NCBI GenBank assembly: GCA_965205905.1
Contig: CBDBHZ010000001.1
Coordinates: 93,497-157,496 of the forward strand
Length of the DNA stretch: 64,000 nucleotides
Source: Alphaproteobacteria bacterium
GTDB taxonomy: Bacteria; Pseudomonadota; Alphaproteobacteria; JABAAW01; JAHZMA01
Reading direction: 5' to 3'
Shown: piece after piece, positions 18,521-63,850 of the stretch
Position numbering within the stretch: position 1 is the first letter of the stretch
How the letters are laid out: every line of letters begins with the position of its first letter
Program-made: the position numbers and the translations under genes
Notes under the pieces: generated by a model
Databases searched by the model: none
The model's input: only the letters and a program-made list of their open reading frames with translations
What the model was told of the DNA's origin: nothing

Positions 18521-18848
18521 AGTATTAAAATACAGCGGTGGGATTGTTAAGGCTAGCACCATCTTTAGTGTTAAGCAACAGCGACACGCACCGCCCTCGT
18601 GTTGAAATACAGTGGGGGTTGTTAAGGCTTGCTCGATATTAGTATTAAACACAGCGGTGGGGGGTATGGGTGAGGTTTGCACCTCCAGAGTATTACACAC
18701 AGGCGGGGGGATTATCAAGGGGGGTCGCAACAAGGTGGGTGTCCTACGGACATACCCACCGAGAAGTTGCGCCGCACCCCCCTTGATACTATAAACCGAC
18801 TCCGCAAAGCCCCCATATATTAATGTCTTGCAAAATGCACCGCCCTTG
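18521..18848 (+). repeat. Modular repeat array R1 (about 5 arm units plus hairpin core 18713-18788)
   Basis: Tandem units AGTATT-N6/7-AGCGG(T)GGG...; core TATCAAGGGGGGT...ACCCCCCTTGATA. Confidence 0.85.
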
Positions 18849-18850
18849 TT

Positions 18851-19942
18851 TTATTTACTTGCCTCGTCCGCCAATGCTTGTTCGATGATGCGGACGACTT
18901 CTTCGGCTTTTTCGATGTGGGCGGGAAAAGAGGCTTTTACAGAGTCATAATATAGTTGATCGCTATTATTTGTACTAATATAAATATCTTTTAAAATTCT
19001 AACTCTCTCCTCTGCTTTTTCAAGTGGAGTCCTATATGGAGGAGTGCCATCATAAGATGATTTGGCATGTAAATCCACTCCCAAATCAATGAGGAATTTT
19101 ATCAATTCATTGGAACGTTCCCAGTGAATCGTATTTATTAAAGGGGACTTGTGACTATCTGTTACAATATTTGAGTCAGCACCATTTGATATTAAAAATT
19201 TTGCGATTTCTAATGTGCCAACATAACTGAAAATTGTTTTACTCCATTTTGGATTTTTTGAATTAATAACAGCACCATTGTCCAAAAAAAACTGAATCAG
19301 TGGAATAATGTTATTATTGTGTGTGTTTGCTAACTCCATAAATAACGGGTTAACTGCGTAACCTGAGTAATAATCAAAATAGATTTCAGGGTGTTCCGTT
19401 ACTGCCTGCAACAAAATTTTATCGATGGTGGGTGAAAACTCAACTTTATAAAACCCGACAATATCATTCAGATAATATCTTATGTGATAATGTTTTACGT
19501 AAATATTATCTTTTTTGGTTCTAAAGAAATTTTTCTCTATTTCAATATTATTGGTATAGGTCAGTATTTCTTCTTGATGATGTATTAATTTAGCAAGGTC
19601 TTTTGGTTGAAATTGTTTTAATTCATCGATAATAGCACTCACATCATTTTCAGTAAAAGTATCAAGCAATTCTGAATTTTTTAAAGCCACATAATAACTA
19701 AATAATTTTAAGTCGGTGGTTGTTAATTCGCTGGGCAATGTTTCAATTTTCGAGAATCTTTTTCTGATAGCCAATTTTTGCTCATCGGTGAACCATTCTT
19801 CGGAAACAAGCGGCTTTTCGACAGAAGATTTTACTGTAGATGCTTGGCTAATATTATTTGTTGCTAACCAAGTCAACACCACACCCACCATAATAAATAT
19901 GGCAGGTATGATAATGCAAAGGCGGTAATTTTTTATATTCAT
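18851..19942 (-). CDS. Membrane-anchored ankyrin-repeat protein
   Basis: N-terminal TM helix; FFLDNGAVIN, FLISNGADSN, KSPL, FLIDLGVDLH and RTPLE repeats; AT-rich. Confidence 0.75.
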   Translation of the reverse strand: MNIKNYRLCIIIPAIFIMVGVVLTWLATNNISQASTVKSSVEKPLVSEEWFTDEQKLAIRKRFSKIETLPSELTTTDLKLFSYYVALKNSELLDTFTENDVSAIIDELKQFQPKDLAKLIHHQEEILTYTNNIEIEKNFFRTKKDNIYVKHYHIRYYLNDIVGFYKVEFSPTIDKILLQAVTEHPEIYFDYYSGYAVNPLFMELANTHNNNIIPLIQFFLDNGAVINSKNPKWSKTIFSYVGTLEIAKFLISNGADSNIVTDSHKSPLINTIHWERSNELIKFLIDLGVDLHAKSSYDGTPPYRTPLEKAEERVRILKDIYISTNNSDQLYYDSVKASFPAHIEKAEEVVRIIEQALADEASK

Positions 19943-20149
19943 TTTATTATTCTTTATTTGAATTTTTTATTAACTAAAAGTTGTTTGGCTTCAGTAATCT
20001 GGCGTTTTAATTGCAACAAATTACAATTATCCGTTTGATTGCTATTATGCTGAAGTTCACACGCAAGTTTAACAATATTTTCGAATGTTAGCAACATGGT
20101 ATAGTCACGACACGCACCGCACTTCACCCCAAACTATCAACAGTAATCC

Positions 20150-20178
20150 TTGACGTTTGATGATTATGTTTTTATACT
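20150..20178 (+). promoter_or_regulatory. sigma70 promoter for the ankyrin lipoprotein gene (probably leaderless)
   Basis: TTGACG-17 bp-TATACT, then 6 nt to the ATG at 20185; no Shine-Dalgarno. Confidence 0.6.
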
Positions 20179-20184
20179 AACAGA

Positions 20185-62348: not shown

Positions 62349-62881
62349 AGCTCCGAAATTTCCACCAAATATTCCATCTCTTCTAAACTGAATTTGCGCT
62401 CCAATGTGGCGTTTCTATGCGGAAACCGTCCGAAGCGCATGATAACATCATAATGTTCCTGTGCGAATTGTAGGCTATCGCCCATCTGTAACGCGCTGAA
62501 TAATTTGAGGCTTTGTTGCTGAATCAGTTGCGATTCTGAATGCATGAAAGGCATGTAGCAAAACATGCGTTCGGGCTTTGATAATTCCTTATCCGCGCCT
62601 GTCTCAATCGCCATTTGCGCCAATAATAACGCCATGCCATCATAGGCGTAACCCTCAGCTGAGTTTCTAAATAAATTACGCGAAAATTGGTCAAGAATGA
62701 TAATTTCGGCAAGCCTGCCTTGCGGAGTCTCACGCCAATGCGCTAACTCACCCGCGCGTGCTTGGGCGTGCATGGTGGCAAACGCCTCAACGCGTTGGTC
62801 GGTTTCATCCGATTGCATAAACCAATCTTTGGGTTGCAAAATTTCAAACCAGAATTTGATAATATGTTGATAACCTATCAT
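62345..62881 (-). CDS. DUF924 family protein
   Basis: IIKFWF, LAEIIILDQFSRN.FR, YMPFMHSE and RFGRFPHRN. Confidence 0.9.
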   Translation of the reverse strand: MIGYQHIIKFWFEILQPKDWFMQSDETDQRVEAFATMHAQARAGELAHWRETPQGRLAEIIILDQFSRNLFRNSAEGYAYDGMALLLAQMAIETGADKELSKPERMFCYMPFMHSESQLIQQQSLKLFSALQMGDSLQFAQEHYDVIMRFGRFPHRNATLERKFSLEEMEYLVEISEL

Positions 62882-62927
62882 GGTTTTATCTTAATATATA
62901 CGGGCAAAAAAAGCAAGTATGATGTTA

Positions 62928-63312
62928 GTATTGAGTAATAGCGGTGGGATTATCAAGGTTTGCATCATCGCTAGTATTGCACACAAGCGGGGGGATTATC
63001 AAGGCAAGCACCATCAGAGTATTAAACACAAGCGGGGGTTGTTAAGGGGGCATTCGCAAGATGGCGGGCTTGTCCTCGCCATCGAGAAGCGAATTCGCGC
63101 CCCCTTAAATAATAAAGCCCAACTTCGCAAAGCCCCCCCATATAATAATGTATCGCAAAACGCACCATCAGAGTATTAAACACGAGCGGGGGGCATGGGG
63201 GGTCATTTTTGGCGATGGGCTTCTGCCTCATCGCCTACAAAATGTCGCACCCCCATATAATAATGTATCGCAAAACACACCGCCCTATGTGTTGCACCCC
63301 CTAAAAACACAC
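62928..63312 (+). repeat. Modular repeat array R9 (hairpin cores 63042-63108 and about 63195-63257)
   Basis: Tandem arm units and two hairpin cores. Confidence 0.9.
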
Positions 63313-63475
63313 TATCACCTCTTTTATGTTCCTAAATATCCACAAAAAATAATTATATTTCAAAAAAGTTCTAAATAAGTATTGACAAGCATATATTTAT
63401 GCGATAATGATAAAGAATATACACGATAAAAAATGTATATATTGATGAAATATCCGTTTATTCAGAGGAAAAAAC

Positions 63476-63592
63476 ATGAACAGCCAAGCACTTTCTAGCC
63501 AAAACCTAGCCATTAATAACAAACTCAAAGGCAATCAAAAATGCCGATTCGCTGATATGGAGCAACTGCATAAAGTTGTTAACGATTCATAA
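63476..63592 (+). CDS. Putative 38-aa ORF, possibly truncated by repeat R10
   Basis: TTGACA at 63382, AGAGGA RBS, ATG at 63476; TAA coincides with the R10 edge. Confidence 0.3.
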   Translation: MNSQALSSQNLAINNKLKGNQKCRFADMEQLHKVVNDS

Positions 63593-63850
63593 TATCAAGG
63601 GGGTGCGACTTCGCTTCTCGGGCGTGAGGACGGAGCCCACGCCCTTGCGAAACCCCCTTGATAATCCCCCGCCATACTCAATATTGAGACACAGCGGTGG
63701 GGGGCATGGGGGGCGTCTTGGCAAGAGAGCGGACGTAAGTCTCGCGACCGAGAAGCCAAGCCGCAAAGCCCCCCATATTATAATGTATCGCGGGCACGCA
63801 CCGCCCTATGTGTTGACGAATCTAAAAACACGCACCGCCATCATTCCGTG
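63590..63850. repeat. Modular repeat array R10 (inverted core 63593-63663 back to back with forward core 63706-63776)
   Basis: Two hairpin cores in opposite orientation, arm units, and a half CGTC-like REP at about 63835. Confidence 0.88.

Follow-up and report, generated by a model that had tools for sequence, protein, structure and literature searches.

We analyzed a 64,000-nucleotide stretch of an alphaproteobacterial draft genome (assembly GCA_965205905.1, contig CBDBHZ010000001.1, positions 93,497 to 157,496 of the forward strand), referred to here as the window. Between its genes, and in one case within a gene, lie copies of a nested palindromic hairpin for which an initial annotation, made from the letters alone, had proposed one shared architecture and strongly co-varying sequence. 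The source genome (G000) comprises 2.43 Mb in 13 contigs, has 42% G+C and is 96% complete. We compared it with two sister species of the same genus (G001 and G002) and with one species of a second genus of the same family (G003).

Architecture of the hairpin

The element is 60-100 nt long (typically ~70 nt) and is built as a nested palindrome of three helices plus an apical mini-stem. The outer stem, P1, has a G-run on its 5' arm and a C-run on its 3' arm and is extended by TATCAA/TTGATA, TTAA/TTAA or AT/AT. Inside P1 lie a stem of 5-6 bp (P2), an unpaired AA, a stem of 7 bp (P3) and an apical stem of 2-4 bp with a bulged T (or AT). The strand then returns through P3', an unpaired GAGAA or GATAA, P2' and a YCGC bulge, and closes with P1'.

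To represent this structure we built a covariance model, R1, from seven window copies and ran it unfiltered on the window. It gave 15 matches at E ≤ 1, which correspond to 12 loci and so agree with the earlier estimate of about 12 copies. Eight of the loci are strong copies (54250+, 63042+, 63593-, 56477-, 18716+, 63707+, 63193+, and 32602+), one is a mini form (48118-) and three are weak long forms (47801+, 22791-, and 57551-). The other three matches are opposite-strand echoes that score 14-21 bits, compared with 73-78 bits for a strong copy (for example, 20.9 vs 74); the element is therefore asymmetric. Every copy named in the initial annotation was found with the position and arms given there, the AA/GAGAA loop was missing at 63195 and 48119 as it had described, and the architecture is real and conserved across copies.

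When ten copies were folded as single-stranded DNA and compared with 200 dinucleotide shuffles, nine gave z scores of -3.5 to -8.1, the exception being the intragenic copy at 32602 (z -1.8). In the long forms the fold is a three-way junction, with the extra arm where P1 meets P2. The 44-nt mini form has two further full copies in G000.

Paired strands change together

The claim that the paired strands of this element change together was upheld, down to individual isolated pairs. When the seven window copies were aligned by MAFFT without regard to structure, 85.9% of the cells paired, compared with 68.0% after shuffling, and 18 of the 26 pairs changed on both sides, which was reached by none of 500 shuffles. 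A larger set consisted of 76 matches (64 distinct) from the four genomes and two metagenome-assembled records; its alignment was fitted to R1 and so leans towards the structure. Here 92.0% of the cells paired (70.4% when shuffled), 21 of the 26 pairs changed on both sides, and double changes were present in 363 cells where 96 were expected (0/500 shuffles). Shifting the 3' partner by 1-3 columns in this alignment lowered pairing to 39-52%.

Because whole-layer swapping between copies could mimic covariation, changes were also counted along a minimum spanning tree of the 64 sequences. The 31 edges with no more than 8 differences were counted and the 32 longer edges were skipped. The counted edges held 22 double changes from one Watson-Crick pair to another; of the single changes, 18 produced a mismatch and 9 a wobble. 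In several cases a double change affected one isolated pair while the rest was identical, as in GGTGGGT/ACCCACC vs GGCGGGT/ACCCGCC, where the loop and P2 were unchanged. Pairing has therefore been restored pair by pair, and not only through the exchange of modules.

The unpaired bases were also retained in most copies, as the initial annotation had stated: GA[GTA]AA was kept in 54 of the 64 distinct sequences and C-AA-G in 55 of the 64, the second genus included. Among the aligned copies, the AA/GAGAA loop, the YCGC bulge and the bulged T were conserved across genera. The same P3 module was found in several P2 and P1 contexts, that is, the layers assort independently.

As a sign of novelty, covariation does not hold up, since compensatory changes are already on record for REPIN hairpins in passages of PMC3116915. 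As these are mobile hairpins at the DNA level, covariation alone is no argument for RNA.

Copy number and host range

A regular-expression census of the paired ends counted 132 copies in G000, where R1 gave 125 matches at E ≤ 0.01. At E ≤ 0.001, R1 found 86 copies in G001, 92 in G002, and 9 in G003. Of the 40 relatives searched, the remaining 37, which are genomes of other families in the order and class, gave no R1 match. Within G000, identical copies of 68-72 nt occur at four loci each in differing flanks, reflecting recent spread.

Of the 13 matches obtained in G003 at E ≤ 0.01, 10 are grouped in 27 kb of a single contig. This stretch encodes terminase, portal, minor head, protease, major head, sheath and tape-measure proteins and is therefore a myovirus-type prophage. 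Of the G002 copies, many are located in tandem arrays and in a prophage region found on two contigs. One such tandem array (G002, L041 5308-5638) has a period of 87 bases and is spanned by a 130-codon open reading frame (ORF) between phage tail-region genes, and another in G003 (L040 8120-8283) has a period of 93 bases; both periods are multiples of three. A further tandem array in G002 has a period of 82 bases.

Outside these genomes, a loose-pattern scan of species-representative genomes yielded true copies, as judged by R1, at 6 of 88 loci among the matches listed, the others being mostly chance; the six copies belong to two records that carry the label of Alphaproteobacteria metagenome-assembled genomes. 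With a strict pattern, which recovers three of the window copies, there was no match in IMG/VR or the JGI metagenomes, and blastn gave none in GenBank phages or PLSDB plasmids. The element is absent from the literature that we found on palindromic repeats, which was searched by topic, not by sequence, and without supplementary files. The hairpin family is real and was previously undescribed.

The element behaves as DNA

A repeated noncoding RNA had been among the initial suggestions, and several independent lines show that the element behaves as DNA and not as RNA. In G000, where gene context statistics were derived from crude ORF-based gene calls, the copies between co-directional genes are oriented at random (30 co-oriented, 37 anti-oriented). 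A further 29 copies occupy convergent and 24 divergent intergenic sites, roughly tracking intergenic length, while 10 lie inside ORFs and 2 at contig edges. The ORF copies include in-frame examples and occur in both orientations. Relative to GC skew the copies are likewise balanced (59 vs 56). Among 1635 stem cells, G.T and T.G together account for 21 (~1.3%) and A.C and C.A for 17, so that wobble pairs are rare, show no strand preference and are not in excess of A.C.

The absence of a recognized RNA family, also stated in the initial annotation, was borne out: Rfam at the gathering threshold matched only tRNA across the whole window, and at E ≤ 1 there was no match on 62900-63850 or 47650-47950. 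No T-run follows the stem in the window copies. A role as a terminator or insulator was ruled out by the lack of this T-run together with divergent sites that are not depleted.

The hairpin is a module of polar mosaic arrays

The hairpin does not stand alone but is one module of longer arrays that are mosaic and polar. From the outside inwards, an array opens with tandem M1 units that end in GCGGGGGG; the hairpin follows, then stacked right-end remnants, an AT-rich ATAWTAATG linker, and further modules. Reading 3' from the hairpin, the remnants (YCGC, purine, C-run) come first and the AT-rich linker second, followed by a GCTGACGAATCTTGAAACACGCACC module, and the series often continues with an ATTCCCN8GGGAAT palindrome or a terminator-like hairpin. 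Where identical hairpins occupy four loci, they have in common ~10-14 nt on their 5' side, comprising a box that ends in GCGGGGG(G), and ~8-25 nt on their 3' side (ATAWTAATG...), beyond which the repeat mosaics differ. The GCGGGGG box is always 5' of the element.

Two other modules underscore this polarity. YGCTAGAATT has 107 copies in G000, compared with 2 for the reversed control, and is sometimes found beyond the M1 units; within 800 nt it lies on the same strand and 5' side of 22 hairpins, compared with 2-4 in each of the other three arrangements. ATTCCCN8GGGAAT palindromes number 12 in G000 (10 exact, 2 near) vs 0 for the reversed control, and within 500 nt one of them lies 3' of 8 hairpins and 5' of 2.

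YGCTAGAATT often follows CATTAATATC and forms palindromic doublets beside tRNA genes (in the window at 48088-48120 and 54055-54066); it marks the outer start of some arrays. The GCTAGAATT module, a real repeat with 107 copies compared with 2 for the reversed control and a polar placement relative to the hairpins, was considered as the true terminus of bracketed segments and rejected, as no more than 2 of the 21 brackets carry it at each outer end. A 10-mer, ATGTGCCACC, with 154 sites in G000 (76 for its extension, GAATGTGCCACC), lies outside the hairpin arrays and could be another dispersed repeat or an uptake-signal-like word.

Filled and empty sites were found by comparing the species. At one intergenic site, G001 carries ~245 nt made up of the hairpin and flanking modules, and the same site is empty in G000. 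Nesting was most evident for a mini hairpin of 42 nt (GGGTTCCCAAC...GTTGGGGTCCC) with 6 copies in G000 and 4 in G001. All ten copies lie in unpaired loops or bulges of larger palindromes, at four or more distinct kinds of site: the main element hosts them in an apical loop or in its YCGC bulge, and ATTCCC...GGGAAT palindromes host them in their loop. This placement suggests insertion aimed at extruded hairpin loops.

Inverted pairs of hairpins enclose accessory genes

The spacing and orientation of consecutive hairpins in G000 are not independent. For hairpins 1.5-4 kb apart, the arrangement (+,-) occurred 21 times, compared with 3 for (-,+), 4 for (+,+), and 2 for (-,-) (binomial p 0.0003). 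At spacings >20 kb the preference was reversed, with 4 (+,-), 16 (-,+), 10 (+,+) and 6 (-,-) (binomial p 0.012). The two hairpins therefore turn their 3' sides towards the segment between them and their 5' sides towards the long stretches of the genome. The orientation of the enclosed genes did not correlate with the arrangement of the hairpin pair.

Twenty unrelated gene sets, in which restriction, defence and surface genes predominate, occupy the 21 inverted-pair segments. Twenty enclosed proteins were compared with Pfam. They included an MmeI-type enzyme, two GmrSD endonucleases, a DNA methylase, two AAA_21 ATPases, a KAP NTPase, a DUF2326 protein, a subtilase, two pentapeptide proteins and an ankyrin protein, and further an M23 peptidase, a staphylococcal-nuclease homologue, an outer-membrane barrel, a MatE fragment and a radical SAM protein; 3 of the 20 scanned had no Pfam match.

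In the window, the 54250(+)-56476(-) pair encloses two ORFs (54546-55112 and 55179-56240), of which one encodes a 353-aa lipoprotein with a TbpB_B_D domain and the other is unassigned. In G001, downstream of the ABC ATPase gene (52972-54051 in the window), there is a different lipoprotein gene, which lies between a (+) hairpin relic and a (-) hairpin. The 18713(+)-22780(-) pair encloses an ankyrin-repeat gene and an unannotated ORF of 828 codons. The whole 5.2-kb segment that these hairpin arrays bound in G000 is lacking at the orthologous site in G002. As a rule, synteny between G000 and G001 is interrupted where the arrays lie.

The inverted pairs around accessory genes and the place of the hairpin as a module of polar mosaic arrays are new findings. 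The arrays mark accessory and defence genes and probably help to exchange them, and they may promote gain, loss or exchange of the genes that they enclose.

The close pair formed by 63042/63193(+) and 63591(-) encloses a segment whose sole content is a 37-codon ORF (63478-63590, read by eye); an AT-rich stretch containing TTGACA precedes it.

Table 1. Hairpin copies and associated array modules, with R1 scores and single-stranded DNA fold z scores. Positions refer to the window unless a genome is named.
Feature	Position	Strand	Description
Short-form hairpin	18713..18789	+	P1 TATCAAGGGGGGT, P2 CGCAAC, AA, P3 GGTGGGT, apical GTCC/GGAC, GAGAA, CCGC bulge; R1 73.1 bits; DNA fold -28.1 kcal/mol, z -8.1; left member of inverted pair with 22780-22930
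Long form	22780..22930	-	P1/P2/AA/GAGAA frame kept, apical stem-loop extended; extra hairpin GAGGTTTGCCC...GGGCAAACC between P1 and P2, giving a three-way junction; R1 19.3 bits at 22791-22874; z -5.96 (22780-22925); right member of 18713 pair
Intragenic copy	32602..32671	+	In MurE-MurF linker; R1 53.4 bits; z -1.8
Long form with extra 5' hairpin	47745..47890	+	R1 19.3 bits at 47801-47884; z -4.0
Mini form	48118..48161	-	P1, P2, pentaloop and YCGC bulge, without AA/P3/GAGAA; R1 21.7 bits; adjoins palindromic GCTAGAATT module and tRNA gene (47958-48031)
Short form	54250..54319	+	R1 89.7 bits; z -5.2; left member of inverted pair with 56476
ATTCCCGCGTAGGCGGGAAT palindrome	54447..54466		Inner (3') side of 54250 hairpin; module of the same array
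Short form	56476..56551	-	Tandem G.A in P3, GATAA replaces GAGAA; R1 74 bits; z -3.85; right member of 54250 pair
Weak long form	57551..57635	-	R1 13.3 bits, E 0.65; GAGAA...CGC...C-run right end by regular expression at C1:151074
Tandem M1 units, TATCAAGGC...AGCGGGGGGAT type	62950..63041	+	Precede hairpin on its 5' side
Short form	63042..63110	+	R1 85.3 bits; z -5.15
Short form without AA/GAGAA	63193..63260	+	T / TAC instead; R1 60.5 bits; z -6.2
Short form	63591..63661	-	R1 78.2 bits; z -5.4; close (+,-) pair with 63042/63193 around 485 bp
Short form, ATGGGGGGCGT...CGCAAAGCCCCCCAT subfamily	63706..63776	+	R1 71.2 bits; z -3.5
42-nt mini hairpin sites	G000 C1:262456, C2:1958, C2:4675, C9:9382, C12:169854, C12:270208; G001 L176, L178, L180, L182		

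Copies inside genes

Several copies are read in frame within protein-coding genes. The window ORF at 31019-33979 contains two complete sets of Mur ligase domains by Pfam, and is thus a MurE-MurF fusion. All three species of the genus encode the fusion as one ORF, with 986 codons in G000, 1033 in G001 (L169 596-3697) and 952 in G002 (L170 7-2865). In the linker between the two enzymes, the element is absent from G002, present as an intact hairpin in G001, and present at the same site in G000 (32602-32671) as a copy that has the 5' arms of one variant and the 3' arms of another. P2 and P3 of this copy are unpaired, and it is read in-frame.

In the G001 linker (L169 2280-2400), the hairpin is followed by alternating CCCCCCC-ATATTAATAAT and CCCCCCC-TTATCATTAAT units in frame. 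Right-end remnants can therefore multiply alone and are translated.

Similar insertions were found in phage and restriction genes. A prophage portal gene of G003 contains a copy in the sense orientation, and that of a G002 prophage, 31% identical to it, contains an antisense copy, across which a tblastn alignment runs in a single frame. In G000, a Type ISP restriction-modification gene of 1182 codons (C1:303476-307024, L167) carries an intact in-frame hairpin between its methylase segments. Across the six frames, 35-59 of 72 copies were open (54 in each forward frame), compared with ~42 after shuffling; this excess is mild and unspecific, and no single preferred reading frame was evident in the open-frame analysis.

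Recombinases and the most repeated genes

Four Phage_integrase matches were found in G000, two of them full length. The most repeated genes of G000 are ~17 paralogues, 40-79% identical, in which an N6/N4 DNA methylase is fused to an HNH or GIY-YIG/T5orf172 nuclease (window 2151-3602 on the minus strand, C1:243164-244369, and ~15 other loci). By our tally, a hairpin lies within 200 bp of ~5 of 18 such fusions. The family gave 4-13 matches in seven sister-family genomes and occurs in a few other genomes of the class. We rejected the fusions as the mobilizing enzyme, as the family is multi-copy in hairpin-free relatives and its paralogues are only 40-79% identical.

Possible explanations for the hairpin family

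The explanation that we favor, with a probability of roughly 0.5, is that the element is a non-autonomous DNA repeat whose folded form is read by some protein or process, and which serves as the central module of the polar mosaic arrays. The folded form, either a single-stranded DNA hairpin or a cruciform, would be read during copying or recombination of the module. Copies that lost their pairing would then stop spreading, so that the arms would stay complementary while their sequence drifts and the unpaired bases would remain constant. The arrays lie between genes in either orientation, tolerate in-frame insertion in proteins and are carried on prophages. They typically flank accessory or defence segments of 1-3 genes as inverted pairs, 3' sides inward, at places where gene content differs between species.

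A number of observations weigh against this explanation. The RAYT/HUH, IS110 or IS5-type enzyme hoped for in the initial annotation did not turn up: Y1_Tnp (PF01797) had no match in G000, while the control search was positive in 6 of 14 known genomes, and neither did IS110 (DEDD_Tnp_IS110), rve or DDE_Tnp_1, although other transposase families were not all searched. An all-against-all blastp of G000 likewise revealed no multi-copy transposase. By local GC skew in this draft assembly, the GAGAA strand is the G-rich strand for 59 copies and the C-rich strand for 56 (17 undecided), and a replication-strand bias is thus absent where single-strand transposition of the IS200/IS605 type would predict one. 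The filled and empty sites, and the identical copies in differing flanks, gave no target-site duplication and no base-exact border. Chimeric copies with non-complementary arms (32602, C12:104538, and C10:146882) indicate that ordinary recombination between copies also shapes the family, and complementarity could be restored by hairpin-templated repair without selection. Finally, the inverted-pair bias rests on one genome, G000, and on crude gene calls; it was not reproduced in G002, where tandem arrays and the duplicated prophage are dominant and a hand count gave 3 (+,-) and 2 (-,+).

One alternative is that nothing reads the structure. The layers would have begun as palindromes that became nested by insertion of small hairpins into loops, mismatches would be erased by template switching within the hairpin or by gene conversion, and the arrays would be passive substrates of homologous recombination, much like NIME arrays. 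Nested insertion is demonstrable for the 42-nt mini hairpin, the layers do assort independently and single-crossover chimeras exist; moreover, wobble pairs are rare and symmetric, no transposase was found, and passages of PMC1797815 put forward exchange of this kind for NIME arrays. Template switching, however, would be expected to remove as well the asymmetry of the AA/GAGAA loop, the YCGC bulge and the bulged T, which are kept in both genera (in 54-55 of 64 sequences for the loop), and passive homology predicts neither the strict polarity of the arrays nor their inverted pairs. We consider this alternative doubtful, if still one that carries some weight. It could also be speculated that the hairpins resemble attC in function, serving as site-specific recombination sites at which a dedicated recombinase, for example a tyrosine recombinase, captures and releases cassettes. 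This is consistent with a structure that is conserved over varying sequence with fixed extrahelical bases, with cassette-sized, unrelated defence-gene segments that are bounded by sites and differ between species, and with the four Phage_integrase-family matches. It is nevertheless improbable, as a circle that integrates at a single site leaves direct repeats whereas the flanking pairs here are inverted, the sites are dispersed rather than arrayed beside an integrase, and many copies are solitary or inside ORFs; GTTRRRY/RYYYAAC cores were not visible by eye, no motif search having been made. In addition, the two full-length recombinases have sizes compatible with a predicted XerC/XerD identity, and none of the four was placed next to hairpins.

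A structured RNA, whether a multi-copy small RNA, a ribozyme, or an mRNA cis element such as a terminator, stabilizer or processing site, would account for the strong covariation and the conserved nucleotides of the internal loop. It would also suit the tandem G.A pairs of one common P3 variant, the GTAA or TACG apical loops, and the co-orientation with genes of all 5 strong prophage copies in G003 (E ≤ 2.8e-12). Against these stand the unbiased orientation in G000, the undepleted divergent sites, the scarcity of G.U, the ORF copies in both orientations, the missing T-run and the lack of an Rfam match, all described above, and we regard an RNA as very unlikely. A bolder reading is that the hairpins are the recognition sites of a new structure-specific recombination or mobilization system, outside Y1/HUH, IS110, rve, and DDE_Tnp_1, that moves single defence or accessory genes between chromosomes and phages, in segments with inverted hairpin arrays at their borders, and targets the single-stranded loops of extruded palindromes. 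We think this rather unlikely; if true, it would be in effect a dispersed counterpart of the integron for defence genes.

Should the favored explanation, a DNA repeat that is read in its folded form, be correct, this small uncultured lineage would offer a natural experiment with >100 copies per genome in which shape is conserved over sequence and for which no known mobilizing enzyme was found, and the fixed unpaired bases would mark the expected contacts of the protein. It would also provide a tractable case for how repeats of the REP, RPE and NIME types spread and for how restriction and defence genes are shuffled between genomes and phages, as well as clean examples of repeats tolerated within essential or structural proteins (the MurE-MurF linker and phage portals). 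If it is wrong, the hairpins are one more selfish palindrome family, useful for annotation and a warning that strong covariation alone does not indicate RNA.

Comparison with known repeat systems

The initial annotation likened the element to integron attC sites and to REP sequences. The analogy is reasonable and gains some support from the inverted pairs that flank accessory genes, but the defining features of both systems are lacking. REPs carry a conserved GTAG-type tetranucleotide at the foot of the stem; none was visible in the aligned copies, where the feet consist of the G-run and C-run after TATCAA, TTAA or AT. In other respects the element resembles REP/REPIN, which are described in passages of PMC3116915 as high-copy, mostly extragenic imperfect palindromes in mosaic, BIME-like arrays, with hairpins kept by compensatory changes. 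REPs also serve as targets of other mobile elements, according to part of PMC1525189. In contrast to REP/REPIN, no RAYT or IS200-type gene was found in G000, and our element is longer and three-tiered, has a fixed 2x5 internal loop, includes in-frame copies and is found on prophages.

Like attC, the element keeps its structure while its sequence varies, holds its extrahelical bases fixed and lies at the borders of gene cassettes, here with many defence genes. The core consensus of attC is RYYYAAC ... GTTRRRY. In line with the initial annotation, no such core was visible in the aligned copies, which were inspected by eye and not by a motif search, and whose ends are CCCCCCTTGATA, CCCCCTTAA or CCCCCCAT. 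Furthermore, the copies are dispersed over all large contigs and the segment-flanking pairs are inverted, rather than forming direct arrays beside intI/attI. None of the four Phage_integrase matches was identified as IntI, although IntI-specific features were not searched.

MITEs such as Correia/nemis and ERIC are small non-autonomous elements with terminal inverted repeats that lie between or inside genes and cluster with nesting, as outlined in parts of PMC10969869. The P1 arms of our hairpin act as terminal inverted repeats of 10-13 bp in the same manner. Unlike a MITE, however, it pairs along its whole length and has a conserved asymmetric loop, and no parent insertion sequence with the same ends was found among the families searched. 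The site comparisons gave no base-exact borders at which a target-site duplication could be read.

RPEs are presented in the same parts of PMC10969869 as palindromic repeats of ~150 bp without a linked transposase, which encode a conserved peptide and lie in-frame in unrelated protein genes. The in-frame copies in MurE-MurF, the two portal genes and the Type ISP enzyme are similar. On the other hand, most of our copies are intergenic and show no evident preferred frame; the two were set apart by the description of RPE and not by its sequence.

NIME arrays, as portrayed in sections of PMC1797815, are mosaics of short repeats beside variable genes, including those for transferrin-binding proteins; their content differs between relatives, and they were proposed to promote exchange of neighboring genes. 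Their RS units of 50-150 bp are flanked by dRS3, for which the consensus ATTCCCN8GGGAAT is printed, and in 2007 these sections stated that such arrays had not been seen outside Neisseria (PMC1797815). The arrays described here are also mosaics beside variable genes that differ between relatives, and 10 exact matches to the dRS3 consensus are present in G000. They differ in that the hairpin is dominant (132 copies vs 12 dRS3-like palindromes), in that dRS3-like sequences stand at the inner end of the array rather than between every unit, and in that the arrays are polar and form inverted pairs.

The analysis found neither a RAYT gene nor attC cores, neither an integron layout nor a parent insertion sequence, and the unit is not framed by dRS3; the element therefore falls outside REP/REPIN, attC, MITE and NIME by the tests that define them. 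While a member of none of these families, it most resembles REP/REPIN, RPE and NIME arrays.

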